From the IMG/VR virus record IMGVR_UViG_2541047852_000003: 16,149 nt of DNA. One strand, given 5' to 3'. Below the pieces are notes generated by a model. The model did no database searches, had not been told where the DNA came from, and worked only from the letters and a program-made list of their open reading frames with translations. Shown here piece after piece: positions 2,863 through 15,990 of this stretch (positions are counted from its first letter, which is position 1; every line of letters starts with the position of its first letter). Position numbers and translations under genes: made by a program. Source of the DNA: a virus (Duplodnaviria; Heunggongvirae; Uroviricota; Caudoviricetes).

Positions 2863-3246
2863 TCAGAATGGGATGGAATCGTCGTATTCAGGATTATTTT
2901 GATGATTGCTACTTTGCTGCTGTTGGCTGTTTCCTGAAGTTGCAAATCCAATCTTTGCATTCAGTAATTCAAGAGTGATTGATTGACCATTTTGCCCCTG
3001 ATAAACATCAACCCTGATGTTTTCTCCGGTAATTTCTACAATGCCTCCTTCAACCAGAACGCTACGATAGTAATCCGCTTGCGCTCCCGGCTTGGCAAAT
3101 ACAACGGCGCTGTAGTTTGTCCATTCTTTCTTTTTTGTCTGGCGATCGTAATACTGAACGCCAGCACGGATGTTGAATCCGATATTTTCCCCGCCCTGAA
3201 ACTCTCTTGCGGGTTTGTTTAGTCTTACTGTAATCGAATGTGCCAT
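2863..3246 (-). CDS. ssb: Single-stranded DNA-binding protein (SSB)
   Basis: Start at internal ATG 3244-3246 (TAATG overlap with erf stop, AAGGGG SD); OB-fold-like N-terminus and acidic C-terminal tail ending DDSIPF, characteristic of SSB. Confidence 0.8.
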   Translation of the reverse strand: MAHSITVRLNKPAREFQGGENIGFNIRAGVQYYDRQTKKKEWTNYSAVVFAKPGAQADYYRSVLVEGGIVEITGENIRVDVYQGQNGQSITLELLNAKIGFATSGNSQQQQSSNHQNNPEYDDSIPF

Positions 3247-3851
3247 TAAGCAGTTGCCCCTTCTAATTCGTCTCGTCTGATGTTGTAAACGTCCTGCGCT
3301 TTGTGCTGCTCCGGCGTCCCTTCGAGCATCTTCCACGCTTTGGCGAACGCCTGTTTAAGCTCTTCTACGGTGTTTTTCTGCATTGCTGCGTCAGTGAATG
3401 CTTTTAGAACCTGTTCAGGTGTAAGTGATGGTTTTGATTGCTTTGCTGCTGCGTTCTGCTGATGTTTATGCTCGTCTGTATCTGCATCTTTCGCATCATC
3501 AATGCCGAACAAACCATTGAGGCAATACTTGCGTGCATAAGAGCTTGTAGCTCCCGTAACTTGTGCAGAATCCATTCCTTTCTTGCTTTCTTCCTCTCGT
3601 GCAAGAGCGGTTGCCGTATGACTGTTTTCGCCATCGGTAATAGTTGCCGTGGCTTTCACGTAATACCGATCACCAATCAACACAACTTCATCGCTGATTG
3701 ATAAAAACAGACCGTTCAGTAACGGCTTAACGCCTTCAAGAATATCTTCGCAGCTTCTGTATTTATATTTGCCGAATGAGTTGTACTGATTCTTTGGCGC
3801 GTTCAGATTCTCCTGAATAGCTGCCAGTCTTGCGTAAAATTCTTTGCTCAT
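3246..3851 (-). CDS. erf: ERF-family single-strand annealing recombinase
   Basis: 201 aa from ATG 3849-3851; N-terminus MSKEFYARLAAIQENLNAPKNQYNSFGKYKYRSCEDILEGVKPLL matches the ERF pattern; followed by SSB as in many lambdoid recombination modules. Confidence 0.65.
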   Translation of the reverse strand: MSKEFYARLAAIQENLNAPKNQYNSFGKYKYRSCEDILEGVKPLLNGLFLSISDEVVLIGDRYYVKATATITDGENSHTATALAREEESKKGMDSAQVTGATSSYARKYCLNGLFGIDDAKDADTDEHKHQQNAAAKQSKPSLTPEQVLKAFTDAAMQKNTVEELKQAFAKAWKMLEGTPEQHKAQDVYNIRRDELEGATA

Positions 3852-3952
3852 ATGATTGCTCTCAGAATGGACACGGCCCAAGGAAATAACGCTGATTTAA
3901 TACTTCGACTCGGGACAAATTAAGGCATACCCGCATTCCTTCGCGGTCACCA

Positions 3953-4111
3953 TTATGGCGATACCAGAGAGCTTTCTGCGTGTACATGCGTCTCTGTAAC
4001 TTGCTCTCCTTCACTGTGGTTGCAAGTGACATGAATATCTCCTTCGTTACCGATTAATTCTTTTATCTGACGAATGAATTCTTCGTCTGACCAGTTATCC
4101 GTAAAACTCAT
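3953..4111 (-). CDS. Small protein in kil position (52 aa), start overlapping cIII stop (ATGA)
   Basis: Positional analogy to lambda kil immediately downstream of cIII; no sequence-level recognition. Confidence 0.3.
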   Translation of the reverse strand: MSFTDNWSDEEFIRQIKELIGNEGDIHVTCNHSEGEQVTETHVHAESSLVSP

Positions 4112-4278
4112 GGACGGCCTTGTTGTTTCAAAATATCCCAAAGCTTTTCGAGCAAGCTTTTCATTCTTGGTTGTTTAAAGTCTGCTCCGGTTAAAATGTT
4201 TTTTCGTGAATGCTGTACCGATAAAATCGGGTTGAAAGGGCGAACCGATGCCGCCCCTGCAATAGCGAACTGTTGCAT
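4108..4278 (-). CDS. cIII: cIII-like protein (FtsH/HflB inhibitor)
   Basis: Start at internal ATG 4276-4278 with AAGGAG SD; MQQFAIAG N-terminus and KSLLEKLWDILKQQGRP resemble lambda CIII (MQYAIAG...ESLLERI...LIDILNQPGVP). Confidence 0.6.
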   Translation of the reverse strand: MQQFAIAGAASVRPFNPILSVQHSRKNILTGADFKQPRMKSLLEKLWDILKQQGRP

Positions 4279-4344
4279 AGGATGCTCCTTCTGTTTGATT
4301 GCATAACGAAAACGCCTCGAGTGAAGCGTTATTGGTATGCATAT

Positions 4345-4368
4345 AAAAAAGCCCTCACACTGGAGGGC
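4345..4368 (-). terminator. Intrinsic terminator (tL1-like): GCCCTC-loop-GAGGGC followed by U6 on minus transcript
   Basis: Hairpin 4351-4368 with A6 on plus strand 4345-4350; lies between the 156-aa gene and cIII. Confidence 0.55.
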
Positions 4369-4472
4369 AAAGAAGATTTCCAATAATCAGAACAAGTCGG
4401 CTCCTGTTTAGTTACGAGCGACATTGCTCCGTGTATTCACTCGTTGGAATGAATACACAGTGCTTATTCGTA

Positions 4473-4943
4473 CTAATAAAACACCCAGTTTTCTGTTTCT
4501 TGGTTGTGTCCAAAGTTATATTCAATACCTGGTGTTGATGTATCAATATTCTTCATCCCATCAACAAGAGTTGATACAACAGCCAAATCTTGTTTGATTC
4601 TCATCAAATGGTATTTCTTCCGGCGCAATAAACTTTCAATGGCAAGTTTCTTCGTCGGGAATGCAAAAGATCTTTCTGCATTTTTTGCTACTTTCTTAAT
4701 TGCATATCTATTTCTCCTTTGTTTCCATTCCTGTAACCACTGATTTGGTGCTGGTTTAAAATTAACAATCCAATGCGCAGGAACCAACCATGCATAATGC
4801 TCTGTCTGATGAAAAGCTATATATTGAAGTGCGAATATTTTGATTCCATCTTCTTCAACTGTCGCTTGGAATCTCCAGAAAACAGGCATTCCATCATGTT
4901 CAGTTTCTGATTCAGGAAAAGGTACGCTCCATGATTTTGTCAT
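4473..4943 (-). CDS. Hypothetical accessory protein (156 aa) directly downstream of N
   Basis: ORF with GAGGTG SD; occupies the ral/sieB position of lambda; no recognisable family. Confidence 0.5.
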   Translation of the reverse strand: MTKSWSVPFPESETEHDGMPVFWRFQATVEEDGIKIFALQYIAFHQTEHYAWLVPAHWIVNFKPAPNQWLQEWKQRRNRYAIKKVAKNAERSFAFPTKKLAIESLLRRKKYHLMRIKQDLAVVSTLVDGMKNIDTSTPGIEYNFGHNQETENWVFY

Positions 4944-4951
4944 ATATCACC

Positions 4952-5251
4952 TCAAATAAGTGGTTTGCTGCCTAATTTCATTTTCTGGCGACCAACACAA
5001 GTCACACCCATTTCACTGCGTGGCTTGCGGTAGTAAATACGATTCTGTTTACTCTCGACTTCATCTGCCTTCTTGCAGCGAAGGATTCCGAGTGATGCTG
5101 CTTTATCCGCTCTGACGCAACCAGAGAGCTTTAGCGCAATTTTTCGCGCCAGTCGCTGTTCTTGCATCGCCTGTTCACGTTGAGCCTGTCTGCGTGCTCT
5201 GCGGCGATTTCTGGCGTTATCGTCAGCCAGATATGTAATGACTACTGTCAT
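4952..5251 (-). CDS. N: N-like transcription antitermination protein
   Basis: Start at internal ATG 5249-5251 (GGAGG SD); arginine-rich motif DNARNRRRARRQAQREQ; C-terminus RIYYRKPRSEMGVTCVGRQKMKLGSKPLI matches lambda N C-terminus (RTWYSKPGERGITCSGRQKIKGKSIPLI). Confidence 0.8.
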   Translation of the reverse strand: MTVVITYLADDNARNRRRARRQAQREQAMQEQRLARKIALKLSGCVRADKAASLGILRCKKADEVESKQNRIYYRKPRSEMGVTCVGRQKMKLGSKPLI

Positions 5252-5563
5252 GTTGACCTCCGATGAAACAACTTTGGAATTGATAGTGATTGCAAAGTGG
5301 TTTCTGGCCCCTCGAACTGAGGGGCAGAAAGAGCATCTCGCCACCTAATAGGTCGATGCTCGGATCGAGAGATTTAATTAACCTCGGTTTTGAAGTTATG
5401 CATTCACATAAATCCTCCTACCTCTTGTGCAGCTTTCTTGAATATGGTGGCGGCTGCATAACGCCTATGGAATTGACTTTGGCGGTGACGCGCCGGGTGC
5501 TTATCTTCCGGTTGCCGTCGTGCAGCTGCACTTCACGTCACCCCAAAGCCAACTACTCTTTGG

Positions 5564-5651: not shown

Positions 5652-5730
5652 AATTTAAGATCTCTTTAATTAATGGTCAAGAGCATTTTTGAAGAAAACT
5701 TAAATTTTCTTTCGTAACTTAAGTTTGGCT
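5652..5730 (-). promoter_or_regulatory. pL promoter (-35 TTGACC at 5675-5680, -10 TAAATT at 5652-5657, minus strand) with overlapping TTAAG-type OL operator repeats
   Basis: 17-bp spacing; ATTTAAG-N4-CTTTAA-like operator overlapping -10; further TTAAG repeats at 5697-5729. Confidence 0.5.
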
Positions 5731-5772: not shown

Positions 5773-6423
5773 TTATGGAAGGTTTGCTAGTTTTGCATCG
5801 ACAACTACGCCGATGATTTTGCAGTTTCCGTTGATCTCGATCATCGGATATTGTGGGTTAAGTGGTTTTAGAAACTTCCTGCCTGCATCAATAACTAACT
5901 TCTTGAAAGTTGCCTCGTTTTCTCCTTCGAGCTTTGCAACTACCAGTTTCCCGTTACGCGGCTCTACTTCAGGATCGACGAGTATTATCATTCCTTCAGG
6001 GATACTGAGACCGGCCGGAGCCGTCATTGAGTCTCCCTTCACGTCCAACCAAAACGAATCTTCTGAACAGTCTACGGTTGTATCGTACCAGTTATCTATT
6101 GCACGCTTATGATATGGTTCTACAGCTTCCATCCAGCATCCTGCGCTCACCCAGCTAATCAGAGGGTATGACCCTCTTGGATCATGCCTACTGTGATAGG
6201 CAATGTTTGAAAGACTTTCCTCTCCTTTCATCAGATAGTCAGGGGAACACTTCAACGCATTAGCCAGGGCGAGAAGATTCTCTCCATTTGGCTCTGTCTC
6301 AGAGCGTTCCCACTGAGATATGGCAACATTAGACACGCCGACCATCTTTCCAAGTGCGGCCTGCCTGATCTTGAGTTCTTTTCTCCGAGCGCGAATGCGC
6401 TCTCCCATCAATTGAGTTTTCAT
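5773..6423 (-). CDS. c2: Prophage repressor, P22 c2-type (N-terminal HTH, C-terminal LexA/S24-like autocleavage domain)
   Basis: 216 aa; QAALGKMVGVSNVAISQWE HTH; C-terminal S24-like domain; near-identical to my recollection of P22 C2 (MNTQLMGERIRARRKKLKIRQAALGKMVG...). Confidence 0.85.
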   Translation of the reverse strand: MKTQLMGERIRARRKELKIRQAALGKMVGVSNVAISQWERSETEPNGENLLALANALKCSPDYLMKGEESLSNIAYHSRHDPRGSYPLISWVSAGCWMEAVEPYHKRAIDNWYDTTVDCSEDSFWLDVKGDSMTAPAGLSIPEGMIILVDPEVEPRNGKLVVAKLEGENEATFKKLVIDAGRKFLKPLNPQYPMIEINGNCKIIGVVVDAKLANLP

Positions 6424-10667: not shown

Positions 10668-10994
10668 ATGACTAAAAATACTCGTTTTTCCCCCGAAGTC
10701 CGTCAGAGGGCGATTCGTATGGTTCTGGAAAGTCAGGGCGAATATGACTCACAGTGGGCGGCAATTTGTTCCATTGCCCCAAAGATTGGCTGTACACCGG
10801 AGACTCTGCGTGTCTGGGTACGCCAGCATGAGCGGGATACCGGAGGCGGTGATGGCGGGCTCACCACCGCTGAACGTCAGCGTCTGAAAGAGCTGGAACG
10901 TGAAAATCGTGAACTGCGCCGCAGTAACGATATCCTTCGCCAGGCTTCCGCTTATTTTGCGAAGGCGGAGTTCGACCGCCTCTGGAAAAAATGA
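10668..10994 (+). CDS. IS629 transposase OrfA (HTH/leucine-zipper part)
   Basis: 108 aa [21 protein letters not shown]...; A6 run at 10986-10991 is the likely -1 slippery site for OrfAB fusion. Confidence 0.85.
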
Positions 10995-11881
10995 TGCCAC
11001 TGCTGGATAAGCTGCGTGAGCAGTACGGGGTCGGACCGCTATGCAGCGAACTGCATATTGCCCCGTCAACGTATTACCACTGTCAGCAACAGCGACATCA
11101 TCCGGATAAACGCAGTGCCCGTGCGCAGCGCGATGACTGGCTGAAGAAAGAGATACAGCGCGTATACGATGAAAATCACAAGGTATACGGTGTGCGTAAA
11201 GTCTGGCGTCAGTTGTTACGGGAAGGTATCAGAGTGGCCAGATGCACTGTGGCACGTCTCATGGCGGTTATGGGACTTGCCGGTGTTCTCCGTGGTAAAA
11301 AGGTCCGTACGACCATCAGCCGGAAAGCCGTTGTCGCAGGCGACCGCGTAAACCGTCAGTTCGTGGCAGAACGTCCTGACCAGTTGTGGGTGGCTGATTC
11401 TACTTACGTCAGCACATGGCAGGGGGTCGTCTATGTGGCGTTCATCATTGATGTGTTTGCCGGATACATCGTGGGGTGGCGGGTCTCATCGTCTATGGAA
11501 ACGACATTTGTGCTGGATGCTCTGGAGCAGGCGTTATGGGCCCGTCGACCGTCCGGCACAGTCCATCACAGTGATAAAGGTTCTCAGTATGTATCGCTGG
11601 CCTACACACAGCGGCTTAAGGAAGCCGGATTACTGGCATCAACAGGAAGTACAGGCGACTCGTATGACAACGCGATGGCGGAGAGCATCAATGGCCTTTA
11701 CAAAGCGGAGGTAATACACCGTAAGAGCTGGAAAAACCGTGCAGAAGTGGAACTGGCCACACTCACGTGGGTGGACTGGTATAACAATCGACGATTGCTG
11801 GAAAGGCTGGGCCATACTCCTCCGGCAGAAGCAGAAAAAGCTTATTATGCTTCCATCGGAAACGATGATCTGGCAGCCTGA
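10991..11881 (+). CDS. IS629 transposase OrfB (DDE catalytic domain)
   Basis: 296 aa with rve-type DDE region (WVADSTYV...HHSDKGSQY...[15 protein letters not shown]). Confidence 0.85.
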
Positions 11882-12126: not shown

Positions 12127-12375
12127 ATGGCAAAGGGTGTGTCAATTTCTCCAACTACGGTAAGAATCCCTGAATCTTTACGCGAGGCTCTTGCTGTCAG
12201 AGCATCAAAAAATGGTCGCTCTGTTAACTCCGAGATCGTCATGATTTTGCAAGCCGCGATTGATGAAGATAGGTCGCCAAAGTCAGTTGAGTCATTTGCT
12301 CAGCAAGAAGCTGATAAATTCAAAGAGGCGCTACTTGAGACGCTAAAGACCATGTATGCTAAGGATGAAAAATAA
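12127..12375 (+). CDS. Arc/MetJ-type ribbon-helix-helix DNA-binding protein
   Basis: 82 aa from ATG 12127 (AAGGTG SD); RIPESLREALAVRASKNGRSVNSEIVMILQAAI matches the Arc-family RHH pattern. Confidence 0.6.
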   Translation: MAKGVSISPTTVRIPESLREALAVRASKNGRSVNSEIVMILQAAIDEDRSPKSVESFAQQEADKFKEALLETLKTMYAKDEK

Positions 12376-12911
12376 TGCTGCACACAATTCATTTCTTATG
12401 CCCTGTTAACACTGCCACTGTTGGGCAACTTCAGAACCACTGTCTCACCGCATTATCTCAAGGCGCAACTGAATTAAATATCCATATATCAAGTCAGGGA
12501 GGGGAAACTGCTGCTGGCTTTACTGCGTATAACTTTCTTAAGTCACTCCCTGTTACCGTTAGAACTCACAACATAAGCAATGTTGAATCCATAGCTAATA
12601 TCGTTTTCCTGGCTGGCTCAGAACGTTTCGCAAACCCATTATCAAGATTCCTGTTACATCCTCTATTATGGTGCTTTGCCTCCCCAGCCGCCGACCATGC
12701 CAGATTGAGAGAGTACGGGAAATGCCTCGATAACGATCTTGATCGCTTCGTTGAGACGTTCAATATCGACATCGGAACCCATATTAGGTGGGCATCCCTG
12801 ATAGCAGACTCGACCATTTTGGATGCTAACAAGGCTCTTGAGCATGGCATAATTAATTCCATAAAAACTGCAAGGCTGGCATCCAATCAGGCAAACTGGT
12901 GGGTTGTTTGA
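12375..12911 (+). CDS. Minimal ClpP-fold (S14-like) serine peptidase
   Basis: 178 aa; by-eye alignment to E. coli ClpP core: NIHISSQGGETAAGF vs YLYINSPGGVITAGM; Ser in ESIANIVFLAG aligns with catalytic Ser of GQAASMGAFLLTAG; His in RFLLHPL aligns with RVMIHQPL; start overlaps RHH stop (TAATG). Confidence 0.6.
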   Translation: MLHTIHFLCPVNTATVGQLQNHCLTALSQGATELNIHISSQGGETAAGFTAYNFLKSLPVTVRTHNISNVESIANIVFLAGSERFANPLSRFLLHPLLWCFASPAADHARLREYGKCLDNDLDRFVETFNIDIGTHIRWASLIADSTILDANKALEHGIINSIKTARLASNQANWWVV

Positions 12912-12936: not shown

Positions 12937-12961
12937 AAAAAACCCACCTGACGGTGGGTTT
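12937..12961. terminator. Bidirectional intrinsic terminator between convergent operons (CCCACC-TGAC-GGTGGG with A6 upstream and T-rich downstream)
   Basis: Hairpin 12943-12958; U6 on minus transcript, UUU on plus transcript. Confidence 0.55.
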
Positions 12962-13409
12962 AGTCAAACATAGTGTTTCTAAAGTCTCTCGCATACCCTG
13001 CTAACACTCTCATTCTATTATGATTGTTAGCAGACATGTGAGCTACAGGATGAAAAAGAGCAATCAATGAATACCTGTTCTCATCAAAAAGATTTTGTGC
13101 ATAAACGAGAGCGGTATTGGATGTTTTATGCCACTGCAACTTTTGCGGTGTGCTGATATCTGTGCCATTTTTTATTGGCTCAAATTTATTTTCACCAATT
13201 GCTAAATGAAGGTGCATAAGGCCTGCATCTTCAATATCAGGAGGTCGATGATAAGAGGTGTCTCTGCCAAAATAGCTGGGCAACGTTCCCGTAGACTTGT
13301 AGATGATAAAATCATCTACAAGTGTTTGTTTTAAATCAGGAAACTCAACAAAAACCGGGGAGAAAAAATAGTCAAAACTATCCTGATTATATTCCACGGT
13401 TACTTGCAT
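12960..13409 (-). CDS. Putative YafO-like toxin (ribosome-dependent mRNA interferase family), tentative
   Basis: 149 aa; motifs FIIYKSTGTLPSYFGRDTSY, MHLHL, TALVYAQNLFDE, LIALFHP recalled as YafO-family features; assignment from memory only. Confidence 0.4.
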   Translation of the reverse strand: MQVTVEYNQDSFDYFFSPVFVEFPDLKQTLVDDFIIYKSTGTLPSYFGRDTSYHRPPDIEDAGLMHLHLAIGENKFEPIKNGTDISTPQKLQWHKTSNTALVYAQNLFDENRYSLIALFHPVAHMSANNHNRMRVLAGYARDFRNTMFD

Positions 13410-13417
13410 GTTTTACC

Positions 13418-13984
13418 TCAGTGGAAGTTACCAGAGTGAAACACACGAGTCCCGTGCTCAGCAAGCGCACGCAAACCAGCCATATCTACGGAACTATCAA
13501 AAACAACCGGAACACATGAGCGTTGTTTAATAAGACTATTCAGGTTGGTTACGGCAGATCTGGCATCAGCAACAACGATATAGATATCTCTTGCGATCTC
13601 TTTAAAATCAGCAGAAGCTTCTTTGAATACCGATTTCATTGCCCCTTCAAGTCCTCTCAATTGATGCTCTATCAATCGAGACTTTTCTGGTTCAATGATA
13701 GACAACACATTGTCTACATTCTCATCGGTAGCGTTTGCAAGAACACGATAAGCGTATTTCAGCATTCGAGACAATTCTTTAATCGAAGACACCGCCTCAT
13801 GAAGCTCATCATTAGCCCGTTCACTGCTGAATGAGGATTGATGGTAAGCGTGCTGAACGTTATCAGTAACAACCACCTCACAACTGAACGCAGAAGCTTG
13901 CTGTAATAGCAAACCTATTGCGACTCCAGCTTTGGCAGCGTTCAAGCTAAACATTTCATCAATCCCATTAGTCTCATTGCTCAT
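13418..13984 (-). CDS. Hypothetical protein (188 aa) upstream of and co-transcribed with the YafO-like gene; possible atypical antitoxin/partner
   Basis: Start at ATG 13982-13984 with AAGGAGG SD (internal to the track ORF); stop 8 nt before the downstream start; no recognisable domain. Confidence 0.5.
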   Translation of the reverse strand: MSNETNGIDEMFSLNAAKAGVAIGLLLQQASAFSCEVVVTDNVQHAYHQSSFSSERANDELHEAVSSIKELSRMLKYAYRVLANATDENVDNVLSIIEPEKSRLIEHQLRGLEGAMKSVFKEASADFKEIARDIYIVVADARSAVTNLNSLIKQRSCVPVVFDSSVDMAGLRALAEHGTRVFHSGNFH

Positions 13985-14159
13985 ACAAACCTCCTTCTTA
14001 TCGGAGATTATCAATAGCTATGCATCCATTGAATACACGCTATGCGCAATAAGTTTACGTCACGTGATATCATTATGCAACCACCGTTCTATCACCGACT
14101 AACTTTACTCCCACTCCTATACATCATCTGGTATCCTGCGCAAAACTAAGGAGGTTGGT

Positions 14160-14527: not shown

Positions 14528-15990
14528 TTATTGAGCTTCTTTTTGTGATGCCTGTGCGACTCTGGTGAGCGATTGTGTGACCGTACTGATCGCTCTGTCA
14601 TATGCTGTGCTACCTTTTGGCGTATTTGCCAGACGTAACAAGGCATTTCGTATAACAGGGCTTTCGTATGCCTTCGCAGCTCCTCCTACGACACCAGCAG
14701 CAGGAACAACAAACGCAGCCGTTTTTAGCATCCCCGCTAATACTGCTGCGTTTATGATGCCACCACCAACTAACAATCCATAAAGCTGCTGACCATTTAA
14801 GTTTTGAACGTTCGCTTTTGCCGCGTGTCTTGTATCGTTGAGGTATTTAATAACGCCGTCCAGTTCCTTTCCATGTACGCCTTTAAAGAAAGTTGCTGAT
14901 TGCTTCCTGTTCCGGTGTAACGCATTAATAAACTTTTCAACACTAATATTTCCAGACGGATCAGTCGCCTTATCTACAGCATTCTGAACTATGGCTGCTC
15001 GTGCGTTTTGCCTACCATTGTCATCCAGAAGCCTGTAAAGCTGAGAACGTTCTGATGGGTTTTGGCTAAAAACGAGTTTTGTTACATCCTCAGGTGTAGC
15101 CTTGCCGCTGGCTATTGCCTTTTGAACGCGCGTTCTTCCCATCATGTCATTGAATCTAGCCCATGAGCGATCAACCCTAGACATATTGGCAGCTTCTTCT
15201 GAGCCTAGTTTTTGGGATACTGCTTTTTTCATATCCGCTGTATATGCCTTGTAGACAATATCGCTGGCTTTCTGGAGCGTGTCTTTATCAACAGTCTCGT
15301 TTGAATTCATGAACCGCTTTCGAAGGTCAGTTCTGTTTTCTCTCGCCAGACGCAGGTCATTGGGTCCGCTGGTGATATCGTCTTTAAATTGCTGCAAGAC
15401 TTTTACCGCGGCTCTATCCTGAGATTTGCCCGGGCGGCTTAACACGGCAATCTGATTGTCGATAGCTTTTACCGTGTTTGAGAGATCGACAGGGGTATCC
15501 CCCATAGCGTCAATTATGCGGTTATATCGCTTTCCTGCTGCCTCAATGAATTTTTGTTGCCCTTTAGTCGCAGATTCATAAAGCTGTTTATCAGAAATGC
15601 CACCCAGACCATCGCTAAATGTTCTGACTAAATTTTCTCGTGCTTGTTGTTGATTCAGCCGATTCTTACCGGTTCCAAAAAAAGGAACTCTTTCGCCTAA
15701 TGTCTGAGCCTGACTCTGCATAAAGGTTTTATCTTTCAGCGTGTCACTGGTCATTAACGGCAGGTTTCTTTCCGACGCAAAATCGACAGCAGCCTTTGCT
15801 TCCGGTGACATCTCACCGCGAACAGCCCTGGAAACCGCACTAACTGTATTTTCCAGCCCCTTGCCAACACCACCAATGCCAGCAGAAATTACCGTTTGTG
15901 CAGGATCAATATCTTCTCCGCCAGCAAGGCTGGTGCCACCCTGTAGTGCTAAATCTGTAGCAGCTGATTTCCCTATGGCACCAAGCACCG
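14528..15990 (-). pseudogene. 5'-truncated gene remnant (at least 486 codons) interrupted by IS629; helical protein with C-terminal Gly/Ala-rich hydrophobic segment
   Basis: Reading frame stays open from 15988 through the IS629 terminal repeat to a stop at 16046-16048; no credible start or SD at the junction. Confidence 0.5.

Follow-up and report, generated by a model that had tools for sequence, protein, structure and literature searches.

The window, that is, the whole stretch of 16,149 nucleotides that was analysed, comes from a lambdoid phage or prophage and represents its immunity and early region. The minus strand carries the leftward early operon. A cI-type repressor gene lies at 5773-6423 (HTH_3 and Peptidase_S24 domains), and just downstream of it a consensus scan placed a pL-like sigma-70 promoter at 5652-5680 (TTGACC, a 17-nt spacer, and TAAATT). 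Between pL and N, a nutL-like element was found by eye at 5307-5335, in which a boxA-like sequence, TGCTCTTTC (5327-5335), abuts a boxB-like sequence, GCCCCTC-AGTTC-GAGGGGC (5307-5325). By analogy with the lambda nut architecture, we regard this element as a candidate nutL; its boxB-like hairpin has 7 bp, and the spacer between boxA and boxB is unusually short. The N-like gene (4952-5251) encodes an antiterminator of 99 aa (PHROG 271, E = 2.9e-36) and matches the gene annotated as N in phage 611R6 almost perfectly from end to end. The Pfam N_peptide match to its product is weak and below the cutoff. The next gene on the same strand, at 4473-4943, encodes a protein of 156 aa and is the subject of this study. 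Its Shine-Dalgarno element, GAGGTGA (4947-4953), overlaps the stop codon TGA of N (4952-4954) and is conserved in HK97, 933W, and 611R6. The slot in which the gene lies ends downstream at cIII (4108-4278; PHROG 550, E = 1e-22). Two small genes follow, at 3953-4111 (PHROG 2123) and 3862-4032 (PHROG 1723), both labelled 'recombinase', and then Erf (3246-3851). In the window, the 156-aa gene belongs to the pL operon and runs in the same direction as N, xis, int, and the recombination genes. The location in the early leftward operon was also found in HK97, 933W, phi367, PA28, 611R6, and a metagenomic lambdoid phage whose copy is 73% identical.

The cro and cII genes lie on the plus strand of the window, as do an O-like gene and a DnaB-like replication gene. 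An IS3-family insertion sequence (10668-11881, plus strand; orfA with HTH_Tnp_1 and orfB with rve), situated to the right of the replication genes, contains an ALIL programmed-frameshift pseudoknot at 10949-11065 (Rfam, 120 bits). Further genes were noted in this part of the window. A 178-aa Clp-protease-like ORF (12375-12911, plus strand) and a 486-aa ORF with no Pfam match (14528-15988, minus strand) are not the cargo that one would usually expect in the early-right region of a lambdoid phage. Immediately upstream of a YafO-family toxin gene (12960-13409, minus strand; Pfam E = 3e-22) is a 198-aa ORF without a Pfam match (13418-14014, minus strand); the two possibly form a toxin-antitoxin pair or a cargo pair within the nin region. 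The YafO-family gene contains a perfect 13-bp inverted repeat at 13295-13323.

A first-pass annotation of the window, made from the sequence alone, had placed an unrecognised 156-aa gene between N and a terminator. The reading frame is present as described, on the minus strand, with an ATG start and 156 codons. The word "unrecognised" holds for function but not for identity, since the ORF has already been annotated as gp45 of HK97 and L0079 of 933W. In a PHROG profile scan, residues 1-156 of the 156 matched PHROG 1636 (E = 1.1e-111). By tblastn, the product is 98.7% identical to HK97 gp45 and 99.4% identical to 933W L0079; an unannotated ORF downstream of N in H-19B is also 98-99% identical. 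The gene was found in 83 phage records and in 598 of 5426 complete Escherichia coli genomes (about 11%), at up to four copies per genome, many Stx phages included. The copies in strains ATCC 11775 and S88 match the window copy at 100% at the nucleotide level. About 20 full-length homologues with 55-99% identity and 40 invariant columns were collected from Escherichia, Pectobacterium, Brenneria, Cronobacter, Rosenbergiella, and metagenomes. The dN/dS ratio (Nei-Gojobori) was 0.03-0.05 against close copies and 0.18 at 84% protein identity; against the Rosenbergiella copy (63% identity) it was 0.14, with dS near saturation. The ORF at 4473-4943 is a real gene that is selectively maintained, far beyond chance. 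In the literature, no functional study was found on HK97 gp45, L0079, or the slot between N and cIII.

Just past the stop codon lies a hairpin that the first-pass annotation had described as having a 9-bp stem and had labelled a tL1-like terminator. The stem is there: the arms GTGTATTCA and TGAATACAC form nine perfect base pairs as DNA. As RNA, the structure (4429-4460, minus strand) starts 13 nt after the stop codon and has 14 pairs, two of them G.U, around the 4-nt loop CAAC, with an energy of -18.8 kcal/mol and a z score of -6.4 against shuffled sequences. The terminator label had to be withdrawn. The stem is AU-rich and runs into GGAGCAAUG with no U run, and the terminator scan did not call the hairpin; because it has no U tract, it is a stable stem-loop and not a terminator. 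The hairpin is 100% identical in lambda, Sf6, and HK97, and the sole variant seen was in the loop (CAAU for CAAC, in HK629).

The DNA that begins at the stop codon is widely conserved. Positions 4351-4463 of the window are identical at 113 of 113 nt to lambda 33,933-34,045, which sits between ral and ea10. Lambda has an sRNA gene between ea10 and ral, LPR1, renamed PreS, whose 3' end is the terminator tL2a (bioRxiv 10.1101/2024.10.31.621285). Lambda PreS is an Hfq-dependent product of the lytic cycle, about 88 nt long and processed to about 68 nt; it pairs with the dnaN leader, raises host DnaN, and supports phage DNA replication (bioRxiv 10.1101/2024.10.31.621285). Judged from this identity, the block in the window is a copy of the lambda PreS/LPR1 gene ending at tL2a. 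The sRNA was placed at 4344-4431 on the minus strand (about 88 nt), with its ends taken from the published lengths. Counted back from the U tract, 88 nt leads to about 4431, the 3' foot of the hairpin, and 68 nt leads to an AU-rich single-stranded stretch near 4411. The predicted fold of 4343-4431 consists of an imperfect 5' stem, the AU-rich single-stranded stretch, a GC-rich terminator hairpin, and a U tail, and so has the architecture of an Hfq-dependent sRNA (stem-loop, AU-rich seed region, terminator, and U tail). The hairpin at 4429-4460 coincides with the inferred 5' end of PreS or directly precedes it. It forms the structured 5' edge of the lambda-identical block and most likely acts in processing or stability, thereby fixing this end. 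Rfam has no PreS family; its sole hit in the window was the frameshift element of the IS3 sequence. A 107-nt query running from the stop codon of the 156-aa gene matched 327 phage records, most of them at 99% identity or higher. In Sf6, the identical block is annotated as 'bsq4; boundary sequence', overlapping 'terminator; homology to phage lambda; tL2A', and the HK97 record has a putative terminator annotated at the tL2a site.

The terminator itself lies at 4345-4368 on the minus strand (GCCCTC-CAGTGT-GAGGGC followed by T6) and was identified by the scan, by folding, and by lambda homology. It has a 6-bp stem with five G-C pairs followed by TTTTTT (-11.1 kcal/mol, z = -3.0) and begins about 105 nt after the stop codon of the gene. 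The terminator is identical to lambda DNA between ral and ea10 and is therefore tL2a, not tL1. The earlier placement of the gene between N and an intrinsic terminator survives in part: tL2a is positionally the first such terminator after N, but PreS intervenes between it and the gene. The terminator loop varies in HK629 and 933W (A for G). The variants seen in the hairpin and the terminator were all in loops, which is consistent with maintained structure; the variation is too small to amount to covariation. Another hairpin that resembles a terminator, AACGCTTCACTCGAGGCGTT with TTCGTTAT after it, was noted a short way upstream of cIII (4311-4330, minus strand); it is conserved in HK97 and 611R6 and may be part of the cIII leader structure. 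In 611R6 (1570-1803), the tL2a stem is replaced by a different terminator-like hairpin, and the PreS block ends at about nt 98 of the 133-nt query (window 4340-4472).

These features bear on how the gene is expressed. In the consensus scan, pL at 5652-5680 was the single promoter-like site upstream of the ORF on the minus strand. The terminator scan found no intrinsic terminator between pL and the ORF on this strand, nor any terminator-like site between N and the ORF. Expression from pL, as proposed in the first-pass annotation, is supported by both results. With no other promoter-like site and no intervening intrinsic terminator, the gene should be co-transcribed with N. On this sequence evidence, release from repression should at once yield its product along with N, and in the lysogen the gene should not be expressed. 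The scan also returned tL2a as the first intrinsic terminator after pL and N on the minus strand, so the predicted immediate-early transcript comprises N, the gp45-like gene, and PreS. This prediction takes account of intrinsic terminators only. In the window phage, PreS would form the 3' UTR of the 156-aa gene. The corrected immediate-early leftward map reads pL, nutL, N, gp45-like gene, PreS, and tL2a.

The predicted expression pattern weighs on one explanation of the gene, namely that it serves the prophage as a SieB-like defence or superinfection exclusion function, with the protein blocking other phages in the lysogen. Lambda sieB occupies this slot, and in PA28 an exclusion gene of the gp17 type adjoins the gp45-like gene. 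However, the only promoter-like site is pL, which the repressor shuts, and the gene is coupled to N. The 72 aligned family members gave no meaningful PADLOC match, no membrane segment was apparent by eye in the sequence or the predicted fold, and relatives occur in virulent phages and inside replication modules. Given the pL-only expression, the repression in the lysogen, and the relatives in virulent phages, a role in prophage exclusion is disfavoured, and we give it hardly any credence.

The assignment of the gene to an N-proximal accessory slot was borne out. The slot between N and cIII in the pL operon is variable, and its other occupants in related phages are ral (phi367 and Sf6), a P22 gp17-type superinfection-exclusion gene (PA28), and ea10/ssb (933W). 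The gene order is N, two small genes, ral, and the gp45-like gene in phi367, and N, a small gene, the gp45-like gene, and the gp17-type exclusion gene in PA28. The gp45-like gene is followed by ea10/ssb in 933W and, in 611R6, by an extra 77-aa gene that lies before the cIII leader and has its own terminator. In the metagenomic lambdoid phage with the 73% identical copy, the order cI, N, gene, cIII, and RecT is kept. The gene occurs with at least two N sequence types (that of HK97 and 933W, and that of the window and 611R6) and with different recombination partners, which are Erf and Abc2 in HK97, Bet/Exo/Gam in 933W, and RecT in 611R6 and PA28. Travelling with several N types and recombination modules, the gene is not tied to one partner module. 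Sf6 gp34 is found at the corresponding place ahead of bsq4 but is unrelated (hhalign probability 0.1).

The segment shared with HK97, 933W, and 611R6 begins at about 5005, within the last 54 nt or so of N, takes in the ORF, and ends near 4375. The N of the window stops 8 nt short of the ORF; in HK97 and 933W another N is present, which ends 58 nt upstream of the gene. The window-type N has left its 3' end (4952-5005, minus strand) in HK97 and 933W as a non-coding remnant, which marks an old recombination junction inside N.

Because the gene and the PreS block are adjacent, the protein might be thought to partner PreS by binding the hairpin or the precursor and thereby processing, stabilising, or loading the sRNA. 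In E. coli phages, the PreS block starts at the stop codon of the gene, and in HK97, 933W, and 611R6 the gene and the block form one moving cassette; the protein is also basic and Trp-rich. However, about three-quarters of the PreS-carrying records are without the gene, including lambda, Sf6, and HK629, and the gene is found without PreS in Pectobacterium, Brenneria, Rosenbergiella, Pseudomonas, and Vibrio phage loci. The occurrence of each without the other indicates that the adjacency is a property of a mosaic junction and not an obligate pairing. Moreover, the block is a known mosaic boundary sequence, bsq4, so recombination explains why the two lie side by side. We therefore consider a dedicated PreS partner very improbable.

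The protein itself has a calculated mass of 18.6 kDa and a pI of 9.27, and it contains seven Trp residues. Residues 74-117 include 16 Lys/Arg and 2 Asp/Glu, and the flanks are acidic. An AlphaFold model built with a deep alignment reached a pLDDT of 95.4 and a pTM of 0.83. It has strands at 19-30, 33-46, 50-55, and 83-86, short helices at 58-61 and 66-74, a long helix at 98-130, and an ordered C-terminal tail; in summary, a three-stranded beta-meander is followed by a long and strongly basic helix. An exhaustive profile search collected 87 proteins at E ≤ 1e-3, mostly of 130-155 aa, which map to the unknown-function PHROGs 1636, 13631, and 25384 alone. The core of this family consists of an N-terminal beta region with the consensus Y-R...E-G...H-E-T and a second part with the motif K..K...RFAFxTKxxAxxxLxxRK..QLxHL, and the basic positions K87, R91, R107/K109, and R115 are kept across the wider family. 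Two apparent domain fusions (P0059, 940 aa, and P0080, 444 aa) proved to be low-complexity repeat artefacts. A single distant family protein used as a query gave no match in viral contigs.

No Pfam, NCBIfam, or PADLOC model matched the 156-aa protein, and the 72 aligned family members likewise gave no meaningful match in these three libraries. The sole PADLOC hit of the window protein was Cas1_II (E = 0.018), and the hits of the 72 members were scattered single ones with E > 1e-3. PDB sequence searches with two family profiles (A1 and A3) returned noise only (E > 0.3), and a PDB fold search detected no relative of solved structure. The top families in the PHROG scan were all of unknown function, and none of them was ral or a superinfection-exclusion family. 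The first-pass annotation had named clear homology to a replication or recombination protein as evidence that would count against its view of the gene as a defence or anti-defence candidate; no such homology was found in Pfam, NCBIfam, or PDB sequence searches. A helix-turn-helix or other known DNA-binding domain was not detected. The motif RFAFxTKEEA had suggested an AP2 or integrase-type DNA-binding domain, in which a three-stranded sheet packs on a helix; the structure did not support this idea.

The neighbourhoods of the relatives outside E. coli phages are varied. In Pectobacterium and Brenneria prophages, the gene is the last before xis-int, and in Rosenbergiella it precedes RecT, YqaJ, and SSB. 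Among more distant relatives, one lies downstream of RecT, a YqaJ-like exonuclease, and CsrA, and another has DNA polymerase A and dCTP deaminase on one flank and, on the opposite flank, an SNF2 helicase, a PD-(D/E)XK nuclease, and a 3'-5' exonuclease. A Vibrio phage relative adjoins RecE. The relative in Pseudomonas phage Medea1 follows two DNA methyltransferases, and a Pectobacterium prophage relative also adjoins a DNA methyltransferase. In Salmonella phage NX263 (3001-5401), a 64% identical homologue heads an operon whose other products include a ParB-like protein and one of 178 aa. The latter is annotated as 'DNA polymerase III beta subunit' and was considered as a link to PreS and dnaN, but its best PHROG match is 'RusA-like' (E = 2e-60), with the processivity factor only at E = 2e-8. 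The clamp theme in NX263 echoes the dnaN target of PreS and may be a coincidence.

The reading we prefer, held with low confidence, is that the 156-aa protein is a nucleic-acid-binding early accessory factor. This guess draws on the long basic helix, on a surface whose basic and aromatic residues are conserved, and on the replication and recombination genes that repeatedly lie nearby. The protein would be an early, non-essential accessory factor that acts on phage or host DNA or RNA in the lytic programme, with a role in the support of replication or recombination or in host takeover. Its conserved Lys/Arg and Trp residues would contact nucleic acid, and its transcript would run from pL through N and the gene into PreS and end at tL2a. 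For the identity of the gene, the anatomy of the transcript, and this role to be right all together, we see somewhat less than an even chance.

A more specific form of DNA binding would be that of an early regulator, which recognises particular phage or host sites and tunes transcription, the lysis-lysogeny decision, or the initiation of replication. The basic charge, the long helix, and the co-expression with N agree with this, and in both NX263 and locus L027 the homologue is first in an operon that also encodes ParB-like and MarR-like DNA-binding proteins. Against it stand the lack of any detected helix-turn-helix or other known DNA-binding domain and the position of the gene in the operon, which varies widely (after N, before xis-int, or inside replication modules). 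The varying position disfavours a site-specific regulator, and we regard this role as quite improbable.

The first-pass annotation had proposed a defence or anti-defence function. As an anti-defence protein or host-takeover inhibitor, the product would bind and block a host protein early on, for instance a restriction or abortive-infection component or a host nuclease, in the manner of Ral, Gam, or Abc2. The setting lends this some weight. The operon holds counter-defence genes in related phages (ral in phi367 and Sf6, gam in 933W, and abc2 in HK97), the gene is accessory and mosaic (83 phage records against 327 with the PreS block), and immediate expression with N is expected. Structural relatives occur in virulent phages, which also need counter-defence, and the relatives in Medea1 and the Pectobacterium prophage lie beside the DNA methyltransferases. 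The protein, however, has no likeness to a known anti-defence protein in PDB sequence and fold searches, and its strongly basic character sets it apart from the anti-restriction proteins that mimic DNA, which are acidic. Because ral, gam, and abc2 are found together with the gene, it is no replacement for them, and some family members are embedded in replication modules. On balance, an anti-defence function is possible but rather unlikely. A bolder version, in which the family is a structurally new early-phage superfamily with an undescribed mode of host manipulation (counter-defence or control of host replication), strikes us as unlikely. If it were true, in E. coli lambdoid phages the protein and the DnaN-boosting PreS might form a joint immediate-early takeover cassette.

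The gp45-like family is an orphan that is common, has a high-confidence model and no known structural relative, and has never been studied. Being common, well modelled, and unstudied, it is a cheap and well-defined target for deletion, pull-down, and structural work. For this window alone the findings carry little weight, as the gene, the terminator, and the sRNA are near-identical to catalogued elements. The catalogued sequences that the locus copies almost exactly are HK97 gp45, PreS/LPR1, tL2a, and bsq4.

Compared with known systems, the window gene shows no material difference from the family of HK97 gp45 and 933W L0079; HK97 gp45, L0079, and the H-19B ORF have the same length, 98-99% identity, and the same position after N in the pL operon. 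The motif of the second core part recurs in clear sequence relatives of the 156-aa protein. Beyond them, Foldseek found relatives of similar size in Erwinia phage phiEa2809, Achromobacter phage phiAxp-3, Delftia phage RG-2014, and Cellulophaga phage phi17:2, as well as in PHROGs 13631 and 25384 (E = 1e-7 to 1e-3, TM = 0.5-0.77). These relatives differ in having 12-27% identity, another C-terminal tail, and no known function; they are uncharacterised and come from virulent and temperate phages with hosts across Proteobacteria and Bacteroidota. Lambda Ral and SieB share with the gp45-like gene the variable slot between N and cIII and the operon, but phi367 has ral, and PA28 the gp17-type gene, as a separate neighbour of the gp45-like gene. 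Since it co-occurs with them there, the gp45-like gene is no substitute for either. Lambda tL1 is a terminator just downstream of N and a stop signal for unmodified polymerase. Its likeness to the tL2a of the window is one of position only; in the window, a whole gene and an sRNA lie between N and the terminator. With the lambda PreS/tL2a/bsq4 block, the window shares the hairpin, AU-rich stretch, terminator stem, and orientation in the pL operon. In lambda, this block lies after ral and before ea10, whereas in the window it lies after the gp45-like gene and before cIII.
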